Positions 518 to 32,000 of a stretch of 32,000 nucleotides of DNA are shown one piece after another. This DNA comes from Okeania sp. (GTDB lineage: Bacteria > Cyanobacteriota > Cyanobacteriia > Cyanobacteriales > Microcoleaceae), in contig NZ_JAYKGW010000052.1 of the NCBI RefSeq assembly GCF_035285525.1, positions 1-32,000 on the forward strand, in the 5' to 3' direction. The notes beneath the pieces are model-generated. The model saw nothing but the letters and a program-made list of their open reading frames with translations. It made no database searches and was not told the origin of the DNA. Made by a program: the position numbers and the translations under genes. Position 1 is the stretch's first letter; every line of letters starts with the position of its first letter.

Positions 518-1435
518 GTGCAATTTTTTGACATTATTGAAGTTCCAGAAGATTCAATTTTAGAAACTGAACAACTTGGAACTAAAGATAAATTTTGGTA
601 TTGCCAGGATAAACTTAATTATTTATATAAAAAAGCTAGACTTAATACTGGGGAAGCTTGGTCAGAAAAAATAGCATCAGAATTATGTGAGTTACTAAAC
701 CTACCTCATGCACATTATGAACTAGCAATTTGGAAAGGATATTTAGGCACAATTTCTCCTTCTTTTGTACCAGAAAATAACACTCTTATTCTTGGTAAGC
801 AAATTTTAGTAAAAATAGATGAAAGTTATCTTGAATCTAGAGATAAGAAATATAGAGTTTCTGAACATACTCTTGATATTGTAGTTGAGGCGATCGCCAA
901 TAATTCTATTAAATTACCTTTAAACTGGAAACCTCCTGAAGGTATTGAAACAAAAATAGAAACTTTTGTTGGTTACTTATTATTAGATGCTTGGATAAGT
1001 AACCAAGATAGGCATGACGAAAATTGGGGATTTATTATGAATAATTCAATATATTTAGCACCAACATTCGACCACGCATCTAGTCTCGGTAGAGAATTTC
1101 AAGACTACCAAAAACAGAATAAAATAAATAATAAAGTTGTTAAAAATTATGTAGATAAATCAACGTCAGCAATGTATGACAAAATGGTAGATAAAAAATC
1201 TATGTTAACACTAGATTTATTTGAAAAAGCAGCACAAAAATATCCCAAAGCTGCTCTGATTTGGCTCCAAAATTTAGCCAATATATCAGCAGAGGATACT
1301 TTATCTTTATTTAAACGTATACCTAAAAATTATATCTCGGAAATTTCTATTGAATTTGCTCAAGAAATTTTGACAATTAACCAAAATAGACTTCTAAAAA
1401 TAAGAGAAAATTTGCAATTAAAAAATTATTCTTAG
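518..1435 (+). CDS. HipA-like Ser/Thr protein kinase, core (C-terminal) kinase domain only
   Basis: GTG start. The catalytic-loop-like motif LLDAWISNQDRHDENWGF fits the HipA D-x-H-x-x-N pattern. It is followed by APTFDHASSLG, a Mg-binding Asp region. LGTKDKFWY near the N-terminus resembles the HipA/HipT nucleotide loop. At about 305 aa it lacks the HipA N-terminal subdomain. Confidence 0.8.
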   Translation: MQFFDIIEVPEDSILETEQLGTKDKFWYCQDKLNYLYKKARLNTGEAWSEKIASELCELLNLPHAHYELAIWKGYLGTISPSFVPENNTLILGKQILVKIDESYLESRDKKYRVSEHTLDIVVEAIANNSIKLPLNWKPPEGIETKIETFVGYLLLDAWISNQDRHDENWGFIMNNSIYLAPTFDHASSLGREFQDYQKQNKINNKVVKNYVDKSTSAMYDKMVDKKSMLTLDLFEKAAQKYPKAALIWLQNLANISAEDTLSLFKRIPKNYISEISIEFAQEILTINQNRLLKIRENLQLKNYS

Positions 1436-2160
1436 CTTGGCAAGATTCCAATAGTCATGCTTGGTTTCCTGTAGGTTCTTTAACTTATAAAAATAATTGG
1501 TATGAATTTATTTATCTTAGAGGTGCAGAAGAAGCAAAAAAATTCGGCTTTTCTGGTGTTTGGTCTTTAAATGACTTTGATAAAATTTATCGCTCCCAGG
1601 AATTATTGCCTATATTTTCTCATAGAATTATGAAAAGAAGCAGACCAGATTATCCAGATTTTATTAGTTGGCAAAATCTCTCAGAAACAGAAGATAATCC
1701 TATGGTTTTGTTGTCTCGTAGCAGCGGTAAAAAAGTAACAGATAATTATGAAATTTTTCCTTATCCAGAACAAGATGAAAATGGTGTTTATCATCTATAT
1801 TTTTTTATTCATGGTTTCCGATATATGGCGTCTGAAACTATTGAAAAAATCAAAAAATTAGAGGTAGGAGAAACTTTGTATTTAATGCACGATGCACAAA
1901 ACGACTTTGACTCAAATGCTTTAATGCTACGCACTAAAGATTTTTACCTTTTAGGTTTTTGTCCGCGATATTTATTAAGTGATATTTTTCCCTTAGTAAA
2001 AGAGTATCGTAATTCAGTTCAAATAACATTAGATAAAGTCAATTTACCACCAGCACCATTACAAATGAGATTGCTTTGTCATTTAACAATAAAACATGAT
2101 AATTTTCAACCTTTTTCTAGCGAAATGTATGAATCTTTAGCTGTACCAATTTTTAGTTAA
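1417..2160 (+). CDS. HipS-like (HipA N-terminal subdomain-like) + HIRAN domain protein; start undefined
   Basis: Frame 1 is open from 1390. The stretch LAWQDSNSHAWFPVGSLTYKNNWYEFIYLRGAEEAKKFGF...YRSQELLPIFSHRIMKRSRPDY resembles the HipA N-subdomain/HipS. The C-terminal FIHGFRY...LEVGETLYLMHDAQNDFDSNALMLRT...LGFCPRYL matches HIRAN. There is no ATG/GTG/TTG between 1390 and the track's TTG at 1606, only ATT at 1417, so the 5' coordinate is nominal. Confidence 0.7.
   Translation: MKKLFLAWQDSNSHAWFPVGSLTYKNNWYEFIYLRGAEEAKKFGFSGVWSLNDFDKIYRSQELLPIFSHRIMKRSRPDYPDFISWQNLSETEDNPMVLLSRSSGKKVTDNYEIFPYPEQDENGVYHLYFFIHGFRYMASETIEKIKKLEVGETLYLMHDAQNDFDSNALMLRTKDFYLLGFCPRYLLSDIFPLVKEYRNSVQITLDKVNLPPAPLQMRLLCHLTIKHDNFQPFSSEMYESLAVPIFS
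1420..1426 (+). promoter_or_regulatory. Candidate -1 frameshift heptamer A_AAA_AAT (A6 tract) linking the kinase frame to the HipS-HIRAN frame
   Basis: Kinase zero-frame codons are AAA (1421-1423) and AAT (1424-1426), preceded by A1420, which is X_XXY_YYZ phasing. The -1 frame continues TTA TTC TTA GCT TGG, giving LFLAW. Function is untested. Confidence 0.3.
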
Positions 2161-2333: not shown

Positions 2334-3701
2334 ATGTCTGTATATATAAATCACCTTGAAGCTAAAGGAATTTATGGAATTTTTGATATAAATTTAGATT
2401 TTCATCAAGGAGTTAATATTTTATTTGCTAAAAATGGCAAAGGAAAAACTACTTTGCTACATATTATTGCTAATTTACTTAATGAAGACTATGAAAAATT
2501 TGCCTTTATTGATTTTGATTATATTAATATGACGATGAGTAATGAAAGTCAAATTGAGTTAAAAAATAATATAAATGATGAGGAAATTATATTATTTTTA
2601 GATGGAGTAGAAGCAACAAAAATTCCTGTAAAGGAAATTATCAAAAATCGCTATATTAGAAATCAATTATTCCGTCCAATTATCGAGCGGGTGTCACAAG
2701 AAGTTCCAGAACCAGTTCAAAAAATAATTGGATATAATTTTATTTCAGAGTTAAAAAAGGCAAATTTAACCATAAACATTGAAACCTCAGAATCATCAGA
2801 TCAAAAATTGAAAGCTGCTTATTTTCCAGCTTTTAGAAGTATGATAGAAGCTTGGGCATCAACAGAGGAAAAAAGTGGCAAACTAAGAGACGCTTCTGAT
2901 GAAGAAAAGCAGCGACAAAAAACAAATTTTGCACGTCAAATTTTTGGGAATTTTGTTCCGTTAATTAACTATCCATCTCTTCTAGAAATAGAACAAGTAT
3001 TAAACCAAAAAATTTCTCAGGCTTTTTATGAAGTTAAACAAGCAGAGCAAAAATATTTAGGTGGTATCCTATCTCAGATATTTAATACTCTTTCCAAAAA
3101 TTCAAATACAATTCTAGAAGAAAATTCAAATACAATTCTAGAAGAAATCAAACAACTGAGTAACGATCTAAAGCTTCAAATGCCTGAAGACCTCCGCACT
3201 GCTGTTGAATCATTTCAAGCTAATGAAAAATCGAAAGATGCTGCTGTCAGGATTTTAATTACCTACAGAGAAGCACTGCAAAAAATATCTAATGAACAGA
3301 AAACTTATTTTCAGAATATTGAGAAATATCTAGCTGCTGTTAATTCATTTTTAGATAGTAAAGAGATAGAAATTATCTTCAAAAATTTACCAACTTTAGG
3401 CATAAATTTCCAGAATGGTATGCCTCCTATCCCTGGAATAAGTAAAGCATTATCATCAGGAGAACGTCAAATTTTAACCATGATATATGCTGCCTCTCAA
3501 ATGAGCGAACAAGAAATAGTTTTAATTGATGAACCTGAAATTTCTCTTCATGTTGATTGGCAACGTAAATTATTAGAAAAAATCTCTCAACAGTTGGGTG
3601 AAAAACAAATTATTGCTTGTACTCATTCTCCAGTAGTAGGAGCTGACTATGAGGACGAAATAATAATACTTGAACCTCAAAAAATCAAAATTATTAAATA
3701 G
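2334..3701 (+). CDS. ABC/AAA-type ATPase (AAA_15/21-like), AriA-like component of a PARIS-like pair
   Basis: aggag SD lies 9 nt upstream. Walker A is AKNGKGKTTLLH. The C-terminal region has the ABC signature SSGERQ, Walker B IVLIDEPEISLH and H-loop ACTHSP. The long middle insert is helical. Confidence 0.8.
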   Translation: MSVYINHLEAKGIYGIFDINLDFHQGVNILFAKNGKGKTTLLHIIANLLNEDYEKFAFIDFDYINMTMSNESQIELKNNINDEEIILFLDGVEATKIPVKEIIKNRYIRNQLFRPIIERVSQEVPEPVQKIIGYNFISELKKANLTINIETSESSDQKLKAAYFPAFRSMIEAWASTEEKSGKLRDASDEEKQRQKTNFARQIFGNFVPLINYPSLLEIEQVLNQKISQAFYEVKQAEQKYLGGILSQIFNTLSKNSNTILEENSNTILEEIKQLSNDLKLQMPEDLRTAVESFQANEKSKDAAVRILITYREALQKISNEQKTYFQNIEKYLAAVNSFLDSKEIEIIFKNLPTLGINFQNGMPPIPGISKALSSGERQILTMIYAASQMSEQEIVLIDEPEISLHVDWQRKLLEKISQQLGEKQIIACTHSPVVGADYEDEIIILEPQKIKIIK

Positions 3702-3762: not shown

Positions 3763-4737
3763 ATGCCAAAATGCACTCCCAAATTTACTCCAAAAGAGTA
3801 CCGAATTTACTTGATGAATAGTAATCAAAAACATATTTTAGTTGAAGGTAAAAATGATAAATATTTTATCGAAAGAATGTTGTCTTATCTAGCAAATGAA
3901 ATAGATAAACCAGAACTCAATGAACAAGTTGTTGTAGATTCAGCAGAATTTTTAATTAAAGCTGATTCAGGAACAGGTAATAATAAGGAAAAAGTTGAGG
4001 AAATTGCAAATAGCGTAGTTGATAAACCTTACAGTCAAAGATTTATTGCTTTCATAGACCGGGAATTATATTTATTTAATTGGGATTATGAACAAACTCA
4101 AATATTGCAAGACAATTTTCCCGCACATAATATAGAAAAACGAATTATCAGAACACGAGGGCATTCATTAGAAAACTATTTATTTGAACTAGACATAGTT
4201 AGTAATTTTTTTAATATAAATACAATAATACCTAATCCCCAAATAGCGACAAATTTATTTAGACAAATTTTTAAATCAGTAATATATTCAGCTTGTACTA
4301 TTGGTTTAGCTGCTACTAAAACTAAGCTGTTACAAAAAATAGAATCAGGTATTCTCTGGAGAAATTTTATTGAGTTAACCTCTGGAGAAATAAATTTTTT
4401 GTTAGAAGATTGGTTAGATTTTTTGACAGATAAACGTAGTGTACCGGATAGCAAAATTTTAGAAATCAAGCAAAATTATGAAATTTATATTCAACTTATT
4501 AATCAAACATCTTTTGAAATTGTGAGATGGCTATCTCATGGTCATATTGGTTATGATTTTTTGAGAGAAGCATATATTAAATGTGTTATGGAAGTTAGCA
4601 AAGAAGACATTAGTAATGTTGATTGGATAGCAAAAGATAAGAGGGTGAATCTGTTGACTAACTATTGGATTGAAGAAATATTAAGTAATAACAGGATGTA
4701 TTTTAAAGAAATATTTGAAATGTTAGATTTATCATAG
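3763..4737 (+). CDS. DUF4435 / Toprim (OLD-family-like) nuclease, AriB-like
   Basis: HILVEGKNDKYFIERML is a Toprim Glu motif typical of DUF4435. Also present are IAFIDRE and RTRGHSLENYLF. It lies 61 nt downstream of the ATPase on the same strand. An alternative start is ATG 3814. Confidence 0.75.
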   Translation: MPKCTPKFTPKEYRIYLMNSNQKHILVEGKNDKYFIERMLSYLANEIDKPELNEQVVVDSAEFLIKADSGTGNNKEKVEEIANSVVDKPYSQRFIAFIDRELYLFNWDYEQTQILQDNFPAHNIEKRIIRTRGHSLENYLFELDIVSNFFNINTIIPNPQIATNLFRQIFKSVIYSACTIGLAATKTKLLQKIESGILWRNFIELTSGEINFLLEDWLDFLTDKRSVPDSKILEIKQNYEIYIQLINQTSFEIVRWLSHGHIGYDFLREAYIKCVMEVSKEDISNVDWIAKDKRVNLLTNYWIEEILSNNRMYFKEIFEMLDLS

Positions 4738-5786: not shown

Positions 5787-5885
5787 AGGACTTACCCAGA
5801 TGAACCCAGAAACCCGGTTTCTTGTAGACTTCTATTGCTCAAAACAACCATTTATCCTAGAAACCGGGTTTCTTTGCGTAAGTCT
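5787..5885. mobile_element. MITE-like element, same family as 2163-2274
   Basis: TIR aggacttaccca / tgcgtaagtct. Two copies of the agaaacc(c)ggtttct core lie at 5808-5822 and 5859-5873. Confidence 0.55.
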
Positions 5886-20538: not shown

Positions 20539-21926
20539 ATAGCTACAACCTTCCGAATATTTAGCTAAAACCTTCAGGATATCTTGTTGCCCTGATGCAT
20601 CTTGCCCTGCTTGCTGCCAAACTCCCGTGAAATAATAGCTCCCATTTTGGAATAGTTCGTTTTGGGCAATGATGGCATCCACATCGGCAACCTTAAAAAC
20701 AGGTTCCCTTGGTTTTCCTTCCTCGAAGGTTTCCTCGTTGTAGCGACCGACAAGTAAAAATCCCAATAGTTGTACTAGGTAGGGTTGTCCGAATGTGAGG
20801 TCATAAATGCGATCCATTGCTTCTGCTTCGTAGATGAGCAGGAACTCTGGCTTGGGGTTAGCAAGGAGTTGTCTGGTTGTTGCTCTATTCAAAAAACCGA
20901 CGCGGATGGGAATGACGCTGGCAAAAAATGGCTGAAAGTAATCTTCTGTCATTTCTTCAAGAGTGTGCAACCCGGCAAAGGCAAAAGCAATTTTCGGACT
21001 CATCTGCACGAACCCCCGCAATACTGCCATGAAGTTAACTGGGAGTTGTTAGATATTAATTAGTTTTTCAATTTCTTCAAATTCATCCAGGGCAATAATT
21101 AAGCGTTTGTTTTCTAATTTTTCAATTGCCTGTTGTAAGTAGAGTTTAAAAGTTTGTTGGGGAAGTTTCAGGAGTTCGTCTGTGTCTGGTGGGGGAAGGT
21201 GAATAGCATCTGAAATTTCATCAGCGATCGCTAAAAATAGCTCACCGATTCCCTGGGAAATAGCTCCTAAAGGTTGGAGGTTCACATAAACAACTTGTGT
21301 ATCTGCACCGGAAGATTTGGCAACATTCCGTAGAATTGATGTTTTTCCCATTGAATATTTTGTAAATCTATATATATTGGTTTTCGAGCTTCATTGAGAT
21401 ATTAACTGGCTTTTTGAGCGATCGCTTTCAACAGAGAAGATTTTCCCACTCCACTCTTGCCAATAATAGCAATACTACCGCCACTATTAAGTACCTCAAA
21501 AATTTTGGTAATTTCTTTTTCCCTATTAAAAAATAACTTTGGATTATCTATAATTCCATTTAAGGGAATAAAAGGATTAGGAAATTTTTCTGAAGATTCA
21601 GTTGGAATATTGGAATTTTGTTTTTCCGTATAGCGATTCTTATATTCTGTTTTTAACCATTATAATAAGATCGGAAACTTATTATTTCCAGTATTATTTA
21701 TCTCTTTTTTAAATTTACGATATACTTGCGATTTTCATTTTTTATAAGTAGCTTCCTCATTCTTCAAATTTTCATTACTCACTACAAGAGGAATAATTTC
21801 ATTATCATCTTTCTCCCAATTTCCTTTTTCAAACCTCGCGAAAAAGAACTTTTGTTCCTTTCGCTCCAATTCATATTCGCGAGAAATTTTATGCAGAAAA
21901 TTACTCCATTCCAATTTGCCATAACC
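20533..21926 (-). pseudogene. Decayed, chimeric P-loop (Arch-ATPase/STAND-like) ATPase gene
   Basis: The minus-strand reading is ...KLEWSNFLHKISREYELERKEQKFFFARF...ATYKK*(TGA 21736-38)KSQVYRKFKKEI...PILL*(TAA 21660-62)WLKTEY...NPFIPLNGIIDNPKLFFNREKEITKIFEVLNSGGSIAIIGKSGVGKSSLLKAIAQKAS*(TAA 21402-04)YLNEARKPIYIDLQNI. A second Walker A then follows in another frame: MGKTSILRNVAKSS...VVYVNLQ...IIALDEFEEIEKLINI*(TAA 21049-51)QLPVNFMAVLRGF.... Confidence 0.65.
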
Positions 21927-22574
21927 TCAACTTCTAGCCGTATTTAGTATAGTTGAAAATCTGCTTTATCACAAAAGGGGGAAATAATATTCCCCTAATT
22001 CCACTTAGTTAAATTCTTTAGGTGTAAGTTTTTGGTTCTTACAGAATCAAGAAATATTTCATATTCTGAAATTGTAGATTGATTGAGGATAAAAAATCAT
22101 GGATAGACAAAATTAATGTTAATAATATGGCTGTTTATTGGTGCGATATAAGAATAATAAAAACTATTATATTTGTCTTCAATGCAGTCGAAAATATTTG
22201 ACAAACCAACCCAAAAATAAATGGGATAAATTATTCCAAATACGAACAGCAATTATAATTACCCTATTAACTTATTTTGCCCCTCTAAATCAAGAAACAT
22301 TAGATACCCAGAAACAAACTATCCAACTTATCAAAAATTCCGTAATTATAACTAGACTAATTGTAAGATTTTACAGGAAATCAATAAACTAACAATCAAT
22401 CATAATGAGTTGAAAAATAACTCCCAATTCTCTGGTATACCACTACGCAAATAGGTTAGGACGTTTATAAATTCTCAAACTCAGTCAGAGATTATTTTTG
22501 AATGCATGAATTGCGTGTAGCGCTATATGTCGCAAACTTTTTTCTAATTGGTATTGACATAAAGAATACTTTTA

Positions 22575-22625
22575 CCAAAAAATTAAGGTCTAAAGACTCC
22601 CCTTTCAATACGGGACATGAAAAAC
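22575..22625. repeat. Family E repeat, inverted copy, followed by ctgataa x3 heptamer tract
   Basis: The reverse complement matches ctttttcatgtcc.tgaaaggggag.ctttagaccttaatttttt. It explains the phantom ORF at 22492-22683. Confidence 0.5.
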
Positions 22626-22820
22626 TGATAACTGATAACTGATAAGTGGGATTAACGGATGAAATAGTTAAAAAAGCTCCCAATTAAGTTAAAATAAAAT
22701 TATACACAATTAACTTTGGTCAGTTCCAATTTTTGGCATTGGTCCTGAGTTAATTGCCAAGTTGTACTTATGTGCATTTAAAAGTGCTAGGTTGCCAGAT
22801 CAGACTTAGGGAGAATAATT

Positions 22821-23138
22821 GTGGCCAAAAAAGACAACATAAAAAAGTCTAATCTTCTCTACCAAAGACTAAAAGAAGCATTAGAAAATGGCAGTAAAGT
22901 CCGCATTGAAGCTGAGGAGAGTTATTACGGTTTCCCTATTACTTTAACAAAAGATTTTGTAGAAATTATGGTCTTAGTGCCACCAGACGAATATGACGAA
23001 GAAGATGATTCTTTTAAACAAGTGACATGGTTAATTCGACTTTCGTCTATCTTTGCGATCGCCTACCCTACAGAATACTGGTCAACGGCAAGATTGGAAA
23101 AATTATTGGAAATAGGTTCAAATGTAAGTAGGGAGTAA
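22821..23138 (+). CDS. Hypothetical protein (105 aa)
   Basis: GTG start with gggag 8-12 nt upstream. Composition is balanced and acidic. It is immediately followed by a good terminator. No family recognised. Confidence 0.5.
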   Translation: MAKKDNIKKSNLLYQRLKEALENGSKVRIEAEESYYGFPITLTKDFVEIMVLVPPDEYDEEDDSFKQVTWLIRLSSIFAIAYPTEYWSTARLEKLLEIGSNVSRE

Positions 23139-23144
23139 AAAGTA

Positions 23145-23182
23145 GGGAATAGGAAACAGAACTTCCTATTCCCTATTTTTTT
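23145..23182 (+). terminator. Rho-independent terminator
   Basis: 11-bp stem gggaataggaa / ttcctattccc with a 7-nt loop, then tattttttt. It lies between convergent genes (22821-23138 + and exbD -). Confidence 0.65.
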
Positions 23183-23208
23183 GAAAAGTGAAAAATACTA
23201 AGATGACG

Positions 23209-25342: not shown

Positions 25343-25462
25343 AATATGTTCACTCCAGCACTTTCTAACTGATTATTTACTTGATACTTGTCTATTGTCT
25401 ATTTAGGGTTTGGTGAATTATTTATCAAAGTGTTTATGGGCATTGGTTTCAGCATTTACAAA

Positions 25463-25622
25463 GACTAATAAAGTACCAGCTTTTAGGTAATTCCAGTACG
25501 GTTCCCAAAAAATCATGCATTCTATTCTAGGATTTTGGGCAAGATATGAGTAGAAAATCAAGGTAAGGTTCTTCTAGCGACCTCTTCTATGATTCTCATT
25601 CCCATACTGATTCTGGATTCTG
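25463..25622. repeat. Family G repeat, inverted copy C
   Basis: The reverse complement reads cagaatccagaatcag...gaggtcgcta...cttgcccaaaat...aaaagctggtacttt. This parallels 15825-15964. Confidence 0.45.
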
Positions 25623-26340
25623 TTTGGGTTTGTGTAGCATCCCGTAGGGAAGCATGACAAACGGAAATTCTGGCTTATACCCTGACAAAAAGACTTTCCA
25701 TATGCAAACCCTATTTACTTTTTACTAAGTTCCTCATAACTATAGCGTTTCTCCAGCTCTTGAGGTAGATTATCTGTTTTTCTCTTTTTGTTCCCTGCTT
25801 CCTGTTCCCTCAAACCTAAATTTTTTCACAACTAAGCTGAAGACGTATTTAAAATGTGTCTTAGGACGTCAGATCAGGAAGCCCTGAGATTAGTGACATA
25901 CATGAAGTAATAAGGGTTGTTCTTGACTAGACACACAAAAAATATGTGGTTTAAATGTTTAACAGCTTATGGAAATTGCTATATTAAAATCTAATATACT
26001 ATAAAGAATATACATTGACTAAATTCATGTTAAATGATAGGATAAAACGTTAAAAAATATTAGTATTTTTATATGTTCTTTTTAGGCTTAATCTTTGTGT
26101 AAAGTTTCACCATACTTTTACCATTAACTTCAAAGACTGGTCTAAAAAAGAATCAAACGATCAGGTGCAGACTATTACATTAACTAAGTTTCAGACCCTT
26201 ATGATTAATTAAGGAAGTCTATGTTTCAATTTATATATTGCTTGTTAATAATGACCTCCCTAATTAATATTTAAAATGATTAGCTGCAAAATGTGGGGAT
26301 TAACATTAATTTAAAAAATATTTTGGGAATAGAGGTCGGT

Positions 26341-29300
26341 ATGACCAAGAAGTTATATTTCTCTCACCAAAGGAAATCTCCAAAATTTCATTATTTGGGA
26401 CAAAAGCCCACATTGACAATTTTTAGTAAACACCATCATAGTAACTGCAAGATGTTTATTCCCTCCATCAGTCAAGCTATTGATTATCATCCCCTTACCA
26501 CTTTACCTGAAACTCCTGTAGAAGATGTAATTGTCTCTATGAGTAGTACAGGTTCAAGTTGTGCACTTATTATAGAAAAATCTGATTCTGCTGATGCTAT
26601 AAAGACAGCAGAATCAGCCAATAATAGTACGGAACCCTCAGACCTCAAGCCAAGTGATAATTTTAACTGTTCCGATAGAAAAGCAAAATCTATAGGGCCA
26701 GTCATTGGTATATTTACTGAGCGAGATTTGGTACAGTTAGCCTCTATTGGCGCTCCTCTGAGTGGATTCCCAATTTCTAAAATTATGATTCGCTCCATCA
26801 TAACAGCTCGACTATCGGAAATTCAAGATATTTTTGCTCTCTTTGCACTATTGGAAAAACATCAAATTAGCCATTTACCAATTGTTAATGACTCAGAGGA
26901 ACTAATTGGTCTAGTTACTGGTCATAGTTTTATTCTCAATCAGCTTGAGATAAATAACAAAACTAAAAAATCAATAACTAAAAATGAAAAAAGACCACAT
27001 CTTGACCAGAATGGTATCGTAAATCAAGAATTGGAAACTGAGAAAAAAATCTTAAAAGATCAGAATAATTCACCATTATATTTAAAAACAAGTTTCAACT
27101 CATCTTTACAATTACCAGGGAGCTTAATCCAAATTAGTCAGCTTGAACAAAGCTATAAATCTCAAGTTGTTCAAGCTACATCATCTGCTTCAATTAGGCA
27201 CATTACTCAATTAATGTTTGCCCATAATGTTAATTATATTTTGATTACAGAAAACAAGTCTAGAATTCAGACAGATAGTCATCCCAAAAAACCAAATTCA
27301 CAGCCTCAAAAATCCAGCAAACTTATAGGTACAATTAGTACCAAAGATATAGTACAATTACAGGCATTAAATATAGACTTTAATATAACTAAAGCGGAAG
27401 TAGTTTGTAATAATTTACCAGTTTTAATACGCTCCCAGGCAAGTATAGAAGTAGCTTTAGGATTAATGCAAAAAAGATATTTCCTAGTACCTCTAATTGT
27501 GCAAGGTTCTACAGGAAAAATAGTTGATTTGATAACTCCTGGGAAAATTATTCAAAAAATATTTTTAAGTAAATCATTATATCAATCATTAATTCGCTTA
27601 CATAATTATATAGAACAAGTATCTATTCAATTACATCAAGCCGATGAAAAACTTAAGCAATCTGCTATTCAACGGAAAAAATTACAAGAAACTTACTCAA
27701 AAATACAAGATATTTCAGCTCTAGCTATTGAAGGAAATCAAGATGGAATTTGGGATTGGAACATCAAAACTAATGAAATATTTTACTCTTCTCAGTGGAA
27801 AAAAATGTTGGGTTATGAAGAGGATGAAATTTCCCATAATATTGATGAATGGTTGAATAGAGTTCATCCAGAGGATATAGAAAAAGTTAGTGCTGCTATT
27901 CAAGAACATTTATCTAAAAAAAATCCTGCTTATCGAATAGAATATCGAATTAAATGCAAAGATAATAATTTTATCTGGGTTCTTGACAGGGGAAAAGCAT
28001 TATGGAAATTAGGAGGCCCTGTGAGAATGGTGGGTACTTTTGTTAATATTACTAAGGTAAAAGAAAGAGAAATACAACAACGGTTGCAAACAAAAAATCA
28101 TAGGGAAGTAATTAATAATTTTCCGGAAATAGTGTGGCAAACCGATGGGCAAGGGAAGTTGATTTTTTTAAATGATAAATGGGAAAAAATTACAGGTTTT
28201 ACAACTGAAAATAGCTTAGGGAAAAGTTTTTTAGATTATATTCATCCAGAAGATATATATAAGTTAAGTTATCCAACAGAAGATCATGTAGAAAATACAG
28301 GTTCAAACAAATTAGTTGCAGGTTGCTATCAATTAAAATTGTTAACCAAAAATGGCGAATATTGTCCAATAGAAATGAAAAGTACATTGGTGATTGATAG
28401 CGAAAATAATATTAATGGTATGATCAGTACCCTAACTGATATTTCTGCAAATATTGCTAGTAAAGAACTTTTGCAATCAAGTGAAAAAGCAATCAGAGAA
28501 CTTTATGAAGTTACTTCAGTTGGAGATAGTTCTTTTGAAGGTCGAATAGTTGCATTATTAGAAATGGGATGCCGTCGGTTTGATATGGAAATAGGTTTAT
28601 TAGGGCAAGTTCTAGGAGAACGTTATGAAGTTATTGCAGCTCATTTACCAGACAACTTCTTATTTGGGATAGCTAAGGGAGATGCTTTCACCTTAGAACA
28701 AATCTTTGATCGAGAAGTATTGCGACACAATGATCCACTCGTGATTGAATCAGCTAAAGACTCTCAGTGGCGACATCATCCAGCTTATACGGTGCGTCGC
28801 GTGGCATCTTATATGGGTACAAAAGTTTTTGTCTCAGGAAGAGTTTATGGGACTCTCAGTTTTACCAGTCGCGTTGCCAAGAAGAAATGGAATTCAACGG
28901 ATATAGAGGTTTTAAAACTAATGGCAACTTATATTGGTAGTGAGTTGTTGCGACAAGATGAGACAGAAGCATTGAGAACAAAATATCAGCACTTCTTATT
29001 ACTGAAACAAATTACCCAAGAAATTCGTTCTAAGTTAGATACTAAAGAGATTGTTCAGACTACTGCTATCCAAATTGGACGAGTATTTGGAGTTAATCGT
29101 TGTTCTATTCATGGTTATGTTACTGATCCCTACCCACACCTTCCTTGTGTGGCAGAATATTTGGAAGCAAATTATGAATCAACACTGGATTTAGATATTG
29201 CTGTTACTTACAATTCTCATACGGAAAAATTATTAGCAGAAGATAAAGCGATCGCTTCTCCAGATGTATTTTCAGACTTGCTTTTAAAGTCATCTGCACC

Positions 29301-32000
29301 AATGTATCGGAGGTTAAAAGTTAGGTCGATGTTGGCAGTTCGGACCTCTTATCAAGGACAACCAAATGGCATTATTAATCTTCATCAATGTGATTATATG
29401 CGTCAGTGGAAACAGGATGAAATAGACTTGTTAGAAGAGGTGGCATCCCAGGTAGGATTAACATTAGCTCAAGCCCAAATTTTAGAGTCAGAAGTTAATC
29501 ATAAACAAGAATTAGAAGCTCATAATAAAGCTTTAGAACAAGCTCGACAAGCAGCAGAAGTAGCTAACCGTGCTAAAAGCGAATTTTTGGCAATGATGAG
29601 TCACGAAATTAGAACTCCAATGAATGGTGTAATTGGGATGACAAGTTTGTTATTAGATATGGATTTAACTATTGAACAACGAGATTTTGTGGAGACTATT
29701 CGCACCAGTGGAGATGCACTATTAACTATTATTAATGACATTCTTGACTTTACTAAAATTGAGTCTGGAAAACTGGAATTAGAACAAAATCCTTTAGATA
29801 TTAGAAACTGTGTTGAAGAAGCTCTAGAATTATTAGCACCAAGGGCAGCACATAAAAAATTAGAACTGGCTTGTTTGATTGATGATGCAGTGCCAGAAAT
29901 GATTGTAGGAGATGTGACTAGGCTACGACAAGTGTTGGTAAACTTACTAGGAAATGCTGTTAAATTCACAGAAACAGGAGAAGTAGTTGTTTATGTTAGT
30001 GCTAGAAAAATGAGTGATATTTATCAAGAAAACAATGTAGAAATAAATTACGAAGAAATATCTAACTTTATTGCTCCTGGTAAAATCACAGGTAATTATG
30101 AAATAGAATTTGCAGTTAAGGATACAGGTATTGGTATTCCTAGAGACCGAATGGATAGATTGTTTAAAGCTTTTTCTCAAGTAGATGCTTCTACAACTAG
30201 ACAATATGGTGGTACAGGTTTAGGATTAGCAATTAGTCAAAGATTGAGTGAGATGATGGATGGTCAAATGTGGGTGGTTTCTCAATCAGTAGAAATAAAC
30301 AATTTGCTAGGACAGAAAAAACCCAACTCACTGTTAAAAGTTAATCATAAAAATGGCAATGGCAACACTAATGGCAGAATAAATCAAGAGACTGGCGAGC
30401 ATATTGAGACTAATGATTTTATGGTGAATATTGCTGGAAATCCACCATCTCATTTTGTTAAACCAAAACCAGGAAAGAAAGGTTCAACCTTTTATTTTAC
30501 TATTAAAGCTAAAGCAATTACAATGCCAGTCCATGAAGAAAATGATAGTTTCTTAAAAGGTAAGGAGATATTAATTGTAGAAAATCATCCGGTTAATCAA
30601 GAGGTAATAAAACAACAGGTTCAGTCATGGGAAATGACACCTGTAGTTGCTAGTTCTGCTATTCAAGCTTTAGGTTGGTTGGAACAAGGAAAAACTTTTG
30701 ATATTGGGATTATTGCGATGAATCTTCCAGATATGGATGGGTTGACATTAGCTAGAAAAATTCGGAAATTGGAAACTAAACAAAATTCAAAACAAAGTAG
30801 CAATTCTGAGGCATTTTTACCGTTAATAATGTTCACCTATATTGACAAAGCAGAAGTTTTACGAGAATTGCAGGATGCCACAGTGAGTCTAGTTGGATTT
30901 GTGAATAAACCAGTCAAACAATCTCAGTTTTATAATGTTTTACTGCAAGTATTTGGAACTACAGAAACAGGAGAAGTTGATGCCAAAACTCCCAGTGCAG
31001 GTGTGAAATATTTCCAAGACTTGAGCGATAAAAGTAGCGATCGCGGTAATATCCGTATATTGTTAGCAGAAGACAATGTTGTCAATCAAAAAGTAGCAGT
31101 TCATTTACTAGAAAGAATAGGTTATCGTGCAGATGTGGTGGCGAATGGAATAGAAGTCTTGGATGCTCTCAAACGAGTCCCCTACGATGTGGTATTGATG
31201 GATGTGCAAATGCCTAATATGGATGGAATAGAAGCAACTCAAAAAATATGTGAGATTTACTCTGAAGAAAAACGTCCTTGGATTATTGCGATGACAGCTA
31301 ATGCGATGCAGGGCGATCGCGAGAAATGTCTAAATGCTGGTATGGATGATTATGTGACTAAACCTATTCATCGCGAAAAATTAGCACAAGCATTAAGCAG
31401 GTTCAAACCAAAACGAAACAAAACATCCCAATCTACCACTGATTCAACAAATGGAGTCGGTAGTGATTCATCATTTGCAAGTTCGACATTAGTGAAGATA
31501 GCTCCTCCCTCTCCTCAAAGGGGAGACGCTCCGAGGGGGAGAGGCGGAGAGAGGGAAAATCAAAAAACAATTCCTCAAAAAGAGGAACCTACTAATGGTA
31601 AAGTCAAGTCAACGGCTCCATTGGAGAAAATAATATCGGCAAAAAGTGCATTACCTGTTCTTGTACCTAAGAATACAGAAAAAGATTCACAGAAATTAGT
31701 AGAAGTTGATAATTTAATTGATGTGGATGCAAAGGATATGCAACTTACTGAAGAAACTACAGCGTTAAATTTAGATTTCTTAGACAAGATTTTAGAATCA
31801 AACGATGATCAAAAATCAGCACTCGATCCCAAAGTTATAGAAGACTTTCGCTCTCTTTATGATGATGAACCAGATACTCTAGCTATTTTAATACAAGACT
31901 ATCTTCTTGACGGGGAGAAACATATAAGTACAATTAGGAAGTCTATCAAAAAACATGATTATAAAGCACTAAAAGGAGCTGCTCATACATTTAAGTCTAG
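26341..32000 (+). CDS. Hybrid sensor histidine kinase, 3'-partial: CBS pair x2, PAS x2, GAF x2, HisKA, HATPase_c, pseudo-REC, REC, Hpt
   Basis: Frame 1 is open from 26284 to the window end. It is not in the ORF track because there is no stop. ATG 26341 has agagg upstream; ATG 26452 is an alternative. The H-box is [10 protein letters not shown] (His codon 29602-04). The G-boxes are DTGIGIP and [13 protein letters not shown]2 reads ILLAEDN...[12 protein letters not shown]...KP. The Hpt motif is GAAHTFKS (His codon 31984-86). Confidence 0.9.

Follow-up and report, generated by a model that had tools for sequence, protein, structure and literature searches.

A two-gene module of the hipIN type, which also corresponds to the PADLOC candidate system PDC-M03, is found at positions 518 to 2160 on the forward strand of a 32,000-nucleotide (nt) stretch of Okeania sp. 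DNA (NCBI RefSeq assembly GCF_035285525.1, contig NZ_JAYKGW010000052.1, positions 1 to 32,000; hereafter the window). It consists of a gene for a short kinase of the HipA superfamily and, directly behind it, a gene for a partner protein, HipN, in which a HipS-like domain is followed by a HIRAN domain. On balance, our analysis leans towards a module in which HipN would restrain the kinase and DNA ends would release it, so that infection is aborted, with hipN being translated here from an AUU codon. The locus type has already been described from genome comparisons and is listed as a candidate anti-phage system. The mutation of the hipN start codon is the only feature that is specific to the window.

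Kinase gene

The first open reading frame (ORF1, hipI-type) extends from 518 to 1435 on the plus strand, starts with GTG and encodes a predicted Ser/Thr kinase of 305 residues. In Pfam, HipA_2 is matched with 29.4 bits, above its cut-off of 27, while HipA_C stays just below its cut-off (27.3 against 30.5 bits). Homologues of the kinase carry PF07804 in precomputed annotation. The PADLOC profile PDC-M03A is matched from position 2 to position 303 of 305 with an E-value of 1.1e-113.

The catalytic signatures of HipA, on which the original prediction had been built, are present at the expected places. The catalytic loop NQDRHDENW (1001 to 1027, plus strand) contains Asp164, His166 and Asn169 of the HipA D-x-H-x-x-N motif and is invariant across 35 homologues. 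Its counterparts are GNFDRHNGNWGF in CtkA and GNNDMHLRNFG in HipT. The Mg-binding aspartate motif PTFDHAS (1061 to 1081, plus strand), which can be read directly in the sequence, provides Asp185. Here Pro182, Asp185 and His186 are invariant among the same homologues, and the motif corresponds to APIFDCGS in CtkA and APVYDFVS in HipT. A Gly-rich loop region, EQLGTKDKFW (569 to 598, plus strand; family consensus GTKxKFW), is found at residues 18 to 27, where Glu18, Lys23 and Trp27 are invariant and Gly21, Lys25 and Phe26 are nearly so. Altogether the window kinase retains 49 of 49 invariant family columns, including Lys38, Asp164-Arg165-His166, Asn169 and Asp185-His186.

The kinase had been predicted to lack HipA's N-terminal subdomain, and the data agree. 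No Couple_hipA match was found in a Pfam scan of the window protein, the chain is 305 residues long and the Gly-rich loop lies close to the N-terminus. A Gly-rich loop in this location and lengths of 279 to 321 residues have been reported for HipI-type kinases and these families (PMC8262856). The best 120 kinase homologues are all free-standing proteins of 300 to 324 residues, mostly from cyanobacteria, and relatives from Okeania and other Microcoleaceae share 80 to 83% identity with the window kinase. When the kinase family profile was searched against the Protein Data Bank (PDB), CtkA (3akj) came out on top with an E-value of 4.9e-11 over profile positions 49 to 299. HipT chains were aligned across the catalytic loop with E-values of 0.4 to 0.6. 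Motifs and profile matches together identify ORF1 as a core kinase of the HipA superfamily without N-subdomain-1 and not as a close relative of HipT.

Partner gene and its domains

The second gene (ORF2, hipN-type) comprises 247 codons at 1417 to 2160 on the plus strand, with its start placed by that of its homologues. The PDC-M03B profile is matched over positions 5 to 242 of 245 with an E-value of 5.9e-85. HipN homologues have 244 to 260 residues. Identity to the window protein reaches 87% in genome contigs searched with tblastn (locus L007) and 84% among catalogued proteins. In the relatives, a protein of 247 to 254 residues is encoded directly 3' of the kinase gene, and the two genes overlap. 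The window HipN keeps all 25 of 25 invariant columns, and its AlphaFold2 model is of high confidence (predicted local distance difference test score, pLDDT, 93.1; predicted template modelling score 0.88).

The C-terminal half of HipN is a HIRAN domain, as originally predicted. It covers residues 125 to 225 (1789 to 2091, plus strand) and is matched by Pfam HIRAN with 34.3 bits against a cut-off of 24.7 (E-value 1.9e-8). A search of the PDB with the HipN family profile retrieved Lactobacillus plantarum lp_0118 (3k2y; E-value 4.5e-4) and aligned the motif NNPYDKNAI of the HIRAN domain of HLTF to QNDFDSNAL in the window protein. The same 3k2y structure was recovered by Foldseek from the HipN model with an E-value of 3.5e-6 and TM scores of 0.73 to 0.77, and complexes of the HLTF HIRAN domain with DNA followed with E-values of about 1e-4. 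In HLTF, Tyr93 and Asp94 are the residues that we take to contact the 3' DNA end; their window counterparts Phe164 and Asp165 are retained.

The N-terminal domain, which spans HipN residues 1 to about 118 (1417 to 1770, plus strand), was more difficult to place. Pfam gave no match for this half of the window protein, and neither HipS nor HipA was recovered for the HipN family in a HMMER profile search against the PDB. Sub-threshold Couple_hipA matches are found in 17 of 51 family members and run nearly over the full model, for example residues 21 to 110 against profile positions 9 to 91 of 99. A clear match came only from profile-profile comparison, once the N-domain alignment was deep and diverse. 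In the final hhalign run, a profile of 106 N-domain sequences from an exhaustive search was compared with a profile of HipA N-subdomain-1. HipN residues 17 to 117 were aligned to HipA residues 11 to 107 over 95 co-linear columns with 92.6% probability and P = 4.6e-7. As controls, P was 0.39 for reversed HipA sequences and no lower than 0.0055 in 60 column-shuffled HipA alignments. The P value fell with profile depth. It was 0.015 with a shallow HipA profile, which was seeded with residues 1 to 112 of Escherichia coli HipA and retrieved almost only E. coli fragments, and 0.0036 with 12 diverse HipA N-domains drawn from among the sequences of Table S1 of Gerdes et al. (PMC8262856), before the final value was reached. 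The alignment thus indicates that the HipN N-domain and HipA N-subdomain-1 (Pfam Couple_hipA, the family of HipS) are homologous, and that the subdomain missing from the kinase is encoded by the next gene, as had been proposed.

Around the conserved FxN motif of HipN, Arg70 and Arg76 are invariant and Asp78 is nearly so in the hhalign alignment. No conserved Trp was seen near this motif in the HipN-HipA alignment, which held no HipS sequence. A wedge like Trp65 of HipS is therefore not evident in HipN, and inhibition by HipN, if any, may differ in detail from that by HipS.

A helix-turn-helix (HTH) antitoxin gene of the HipB kind is absent upstream, in agreement with the original prediction. 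No ORF of at least 40 residues lies on the plus strand before 518, and the sole upstream ORF has 24 codons (402 to 476). It carries two GCGATCGC palindromes. An HTH gene was found neither in the window module nor in the operons of the relatives examined.

Gene junction and lost start codon

The second ORF had been placed at 1390 to 2160. This frame is indeed open, follows directly on a stop codon at 1387 to 1389 and contains AQNDFDSNALML, but 1390 is not the start of the gene, and the missing start codon had been overlooked. The first ATG, GTG or TTG of the frame is the TTG at 1606. Ahead of it, the only near-cognate starts are ATT codons at 1417, 1510 and 1585. Homology places the start of hipN at 1417, where the window has ATT and the relatives have ATG, TTG or GTG. 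In 11 of the 12 closest relatives the junction reads ATGA, so that the hipN ATG overlaps the TGA stop codon of the kinase gene. In the window the junction (1417 to 1420, plus strand) reads ATTA. A single G-to-T change at 1419, which makes ATT of the hipN ATG and TTA of the kinase TGA, has removed the hipN start and the kinase stop together. The kinase now ends at the TAG at 1433 to 1435 and has five more C-terminal residues, LKNYS, than in those 11 relatives.

Such a junction is exceptional. All 86 hipN-centred loci have ATG, TTG or GTG at the homologous position or within 21 nt of it, while the next such codon of the window lies 189 nt downstream. A further 151 hipN ORFs from metagenomes and viral contigs start with ATG (131), GTG (12) or TTG (8), and never with a non-canonical codon. 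A start at TTG 1606 would remove 63 residues, among them the seven invariant residues Ala7, Trp8, Trp16, Leu22, Phe31, Tyr33 and Tyr58. Apart from the junction, both reading frames are intact. The hipN changes of the window lineage amount to 13 synonymous and 12 non-synonymous substitutions with no stop codon or frameshift. Two of the window-specific substitutions hit conserved positions: G103S, in a column conserved to at least 90%, and R14H, at a position occupied by Arg in all seven closest relatives.

AUU is a known though weak start codon in bacteria, with infC as the precedent. Most likely, we infer, the AUU still supports translation of hipN, though at a lower level, with help from ribosomes that terminate 16 nt downstream. 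We also considered that the two frames might be a broken fusion of the HipL type, since the addition of one A to the A6 run at 1420 to 1425 would give a chain of 547 residues. This was rejected: the best 120 kinase homologues have only about 300 residues, and in the relatives hipN is a gene of its own that starts at the homologous position.

Linkage of the two genes across relatives

The family is large, with 925 N-domain representatives at 50% identity, 490 genome loci and hundreds of cyanobacterial genomes. In 77 of the 86 hipN-centred loci, the gene directly upstream of hipN is that of the kinase. About seven loci whose upstream flank is complete carry an intact hipN but lack a kinase gene (L017, 4001 to 4762; L050, 4001 to 4765; L053; L075; L080; L082; L084), and two of them, L017 and L050, were checked by eye. 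In L050 an unrelated ORF of 231 residues without kinase similarity lies upstream of hipN; in L017 two short ORFs are found there, one with transposase-like sequence. Among metagenome and viral loci, the kinase-centred search covered the 152 whose downstream flank is long enough, and in every one of them hipN is downstream of or fused to the kinase (in L123 it was identified by inspection). An orphan kinase was not found among these 152 loci. In these surveys hipN is at times found by itself and the kinase never is, the pattern expected if the kinase is harmful without its partner. A role of HipN as neutraliser or regulator of the kinase would fit this asymmetry.

Two metagenomic loci have natural in-frame fusions of kinase and HipN that resemble HipL: L162 (2998 to 4689, 563 residues) and L133 (3022 to 4443, about 474 residues). 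A decaying module is seen in Okeania sp. KiyG1 (L039, 3103 to 4441), where a break at residue 222 divides the kinase between two frames and hipN gives only a truncated match.

Comparison with known systems

The closest described system is hipIN, defined as the pair of the short kinase HipI and HipN, the latter being a fusion of a HipS-like domain with HIRAN (Gerdes, Baerentsen & Brodersen 2021, mBio, PMC8262856). The same study described a hipIN subclade with Proteobacteria and Cyanobacteria as well as the fused HipL family, and it had already put forward the idea that the DNA ends of an invading phage are sensed by HIRAN, which thereby activates the kinase and leads to abortive infection (PMC8262856). 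Its sample comprised 14 hipIN modules, and the cyanobacterial kinases, all types taken together, numbered 6 (PMC8262856). The window shares with hipIN the short kinase without N-subdomain-1, the downstream gene for a HipS-like plus HIRAN protein and the lack of an HTH partner. It differs in the ATT start of hipN and the destroyed ATGA junction, and the family seen here is far larger. We assign the locus to the hipIN type on these grounds; the HipI assignment follows from the architecture, with the PDC-M03A match serving only as a proxy for the clade. Both window proteins also match the components of PDC-M03 (A, HipA-like; B, HIRAN) near end to end, and their genes are adjacent and on the same strand. 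PDC-M03 has been described as a HipA and HIRAN pair (PMC13245101), and a 2025 paper in Nucleic Acids Research still refers to such pairs as 'predicted' to act in defence. The novelty claimed for the locus was overstated: no functional study was found in the literature, but the architecture and the idea of phage DNA ends as the signal had both appeared in 2021 (PMC8262856).

HipBST of E. coli O127:H6 likewise has a kinase without N-subdomain-1 and supplies the subdomain in trans. In contrast to the window, it includes the HTH protein HipB, a free HipS of about 100 residues and a kinase of the HipT clade, while the window module begins with the kinase gene, has its HipS-like domain fused to HIRAN and lacks HipB. 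In HipBST, HipS is the antitoxin and inhibits HipT with Trp65, which is wedged in next to the Gly-rich loop (PMC10627512). HipL has the kinase, the HipS-like domain and HIRAN in the identical order but in one chain; in the window the kinase stops at 1433 to 1435, the two frames are offset by one base and the best 120 homologues are separate proteins. HipAD, or DS-6, is a validated anti-phage system composed of a HipA-family kinase and a DUF3037/DUF1829 partner, and defence requires the catalytic residue of the kinase (PMC13092281). It resembles the window module in that the partner of the kinase is not HipB, yet this partner has neither a HIRAN nor a HipS-like domain. CtkA (JHP0940) of Helicobacter pylori is the closest solved structure by sequence profile and shares the catalytic motifs. 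Its alignment begins only at profile position 49, so that the N-terminal Gly-rich loop region lies outside. CtkA is not known to have a HipN-like partner.

Proposed mechanism and alternative explanations

The mechanism that we favour, though by no wide measure of confidence, draws on the analogy to HipBST and on the co-occurrence pattern. HipN would bind the kinase via its HipS-like domain and keep it inactive. Contact of the HIRAN domain with free 3' DNA ends would release or activate the kinase; during phage infection, such ends may arise from DNA that is injected, replicating or degraded. The kinase would then phosphorylate a host factor that the cell cannot do without, most likely one of translation as with other Hip kinases, and the resulting cell arrest would abort the infection. 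The ancestral ATGA overlap couples the two genes, while the window copy would depend on weak AUU initiation with help from the terminating ribosomes.

Several points weigh against this mechanism. The nearest solved relative of the kinase, CtkA, is no toxin-antitoxin kinase, and HipT is matched only with an E-value of about 0.4. A Foldseek search of the PDB with a model of the N-domain only (pLDDT 90.7) returned noise and neither HipS nor HipA, an outcome that we take as a miss. A partner that is covalently fused to the kinase, as in L133 and L162, cannot act as a classical labile antitoxin. The window hipN is the sole case without a canonical start among about 237 loci, and a strictly required antitoxin should not tolerate the loss of its start unless AUU initiation suffices. 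Finally, our literature search turned up no experiments on a hipIN or PDC-M03 module.

Part of this evidence would also suit a HipN that is no antitoxin. As an obligatory activating or targeting subunit, it would complete the kinase fold, and HIRAN would tether the active kinase to DNA ends; DNA-associated proteins of the phage or the host would be phosphorylated, and the kinase alone would be harmless. N-subdomain-1, to which the HipN N-domain is homologous, is an integral part of the HipA enzyme, CtkA stands outside toxin-antitoxin pairs, and an intact kinase beside a hipN without start codon is easier to tolerate if the kinase alone is inert. Single-chain fusions of kinase and HipN occur naturally, and HipL is a published fused family (PMC8262856). 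We nevertheless consider an activator unlikely. It predicts equal loss of kinase and HipN, whereas orphan hipN is found at about seven loci and an orphan kinase at none of 152, an asymmetry that a toxin and its antitoxin should show. Moreover, in HipBST, the only trans case that has been studied, HipS inhibits the kinase (PMC10627512). It is quite doubtful, to a greater degree, that the G-to-T change is both real and tolerated in the sense that an intact HipI kinase persists with a mere trace of HipN, translated from AUU, or none. HipN would then be no classical stoichiometric antitoxin, or the system would be set to a hair trigger. If true, this would mean a HipN-dependent kinase, that is, a DNA-end-activated kinase and not a toxin-antitoxin system; alternatively, the lineage would run at a very low ratio of regulator to kinase.

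The same mutation may instead mark the beginning of decay, in which hipN has been silenced and the pair no longer works, with the kinase perhaps poorly expressed or the change too recent. The ATT start is unique among the hipN loci, a start at TTG 1606 would cost 63 residues with seven invariant ones, the close relative in Okeania sp. KiyG1 has decayed, and G103S and R14H fall on conserved HipN positions. Both ORFs, however, are otherwise intact with every invariant residue, 13 synonymous against 12 non-synonymous changes look constrained and not neutral, AUU can start translation weakly and a terminating ribosome arrives 16 nt away. Early decay is thus rather unlikely in our judgement. It seems very unlikely that the T at 1419 stems from faulty sequencing or assembly, or from a minority allele of the sampled population, and that the true junction is ATGA. 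The base is without independent confirmation because the window kinase protein is recorded on a single contig, and it is one substitution away from the state of 11 of the 12 closest relatives. These closest relatives are, on the other hand, only 78 to 87% identical, so that true divergence at the site is unremarkable, and G-to-T is not the typical type of error. Consensus substitution errors are rare in assembled contigs, and errors next to homopolymers are typically insertions or deletions. We can give hardly any credence to a programmed -1 frameshift, by which the mutation would have created the slippery site A AAA AAT (1420 to 1426, kinase frame) and with it a HipL-like fusion of about 547 residues. 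The heptamer does fit X XXY YYZ, the -1 frame is that of hipN, the ancestral TGA ahead of the A-run is gone and the family contains natural kinase-HipN fusions. We rejected it all the same: no stimulatory structure is found downstream (minimum free energy z-score -0.56), the heptamer arose from the same single mutation and is not conserved, and the best 120 kinase homologues have about 300 residues.

Genomic surroundings and mobility

Directly downstream of hipN, a PARIS-like pair is encoded on the plus strand: AriA at 2334 to 3701 and AriB at 3763 to 4737 (PADLOC E-values 7.5e-30 and 7.3e-17; Pfam AAA_15 and AAA_21). It is context and not part of the module. The four-gene block of kinase, hipN, AriA and AriB is restricted to the closest clade of the Okeania/Microcoleaceae type (L001 to L003, L007, L010, L011 and L039). 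The first 5 kb of the window, which hold the hipIN and PARIS block, have a GC content of 28 to 30%, compared with 30 to 42% in the remaining 27 kb. This low-GC block is consistent with a horizontally acquired islet.

The module is also found on mobile elements. The kinase-hipN pair is present on 78 IMG/VR viral contigs, and PHROG families exist for the kinase and HipN alike. In 14-kb Vinavirales prophages of Vibrio cyclitrophicus, with PM2-like capsid, a pair of HipA-like and HIRAN genes adjoins the integrase gene (L246, PQ189359.1, 3956 to 5649). The two genes overlap by 4 nt, like the ATGA junctions of the close relatives of the window module.

Several other features of the window were recorded. 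The spacer between hipN and ariA holds a perfect 30-nt palindrome at 2219 to 2248 (AGTAGGGACGTTGCA/TGCAACGTCCCTACT), which occurs once in the window and may serve as a terminator hairpin or as a site for protein binding. A palindromic element, AGAAACCSGGTTTCT, is present in three intergenic copies (2174 to 2188, 5808 to 5822 and 5859 to 5873) and is probably a dispersed cyanobacterial repeat. Within the AriA-like gene, a perfect 24-nt tandem duplication of 2.1 copies at 3097 to 3147 encodes NSNTILEE-NSNTILEE in frame. Promoter and terminator scans of positions 1 to 2400 gave matches no more numerous than in shuffled sequence, and Rfam and tRNA scans of the window gave none.

The rest of the window carries ordinary housekeeping genes. 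A protein with RTX calcium-binding repeats is encoded at 6807 to 8114, with 10 HemolysinCabind stretches and tandem repeats of 27 and 54 nt, and a CTCCCCGA/CCCTACT microsatellite lies downstream of its gene at 8415 to 8498. The coding density of the window is unusually low for a bacterium: no ORF of at least 110 residues is found in 14184 to 16127, 21031 to 23208, 25343 to 29600 and 29970 to 32000. Low coding density has been reported for Trichodesmium-like genomes.

Significance

The hipIN/PDC-M03 family is large and widespread and occurs also on prophages. If the published hypothesis is right, it would join a protein kinase, as the effector, to the sensing of free DNA ends in bacterial immunity. 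The window adds no new principle to this picture. It provides a clean cyanobacterial example in a defence islet beside a PARIS-like pair, and the comparative evidence added here suggests that the kinase depends on HipN and not the reverse. As a natural start-codon mutant, the Okeania module could reveal whether HipN is an inhibitor or an activator of its kinase.

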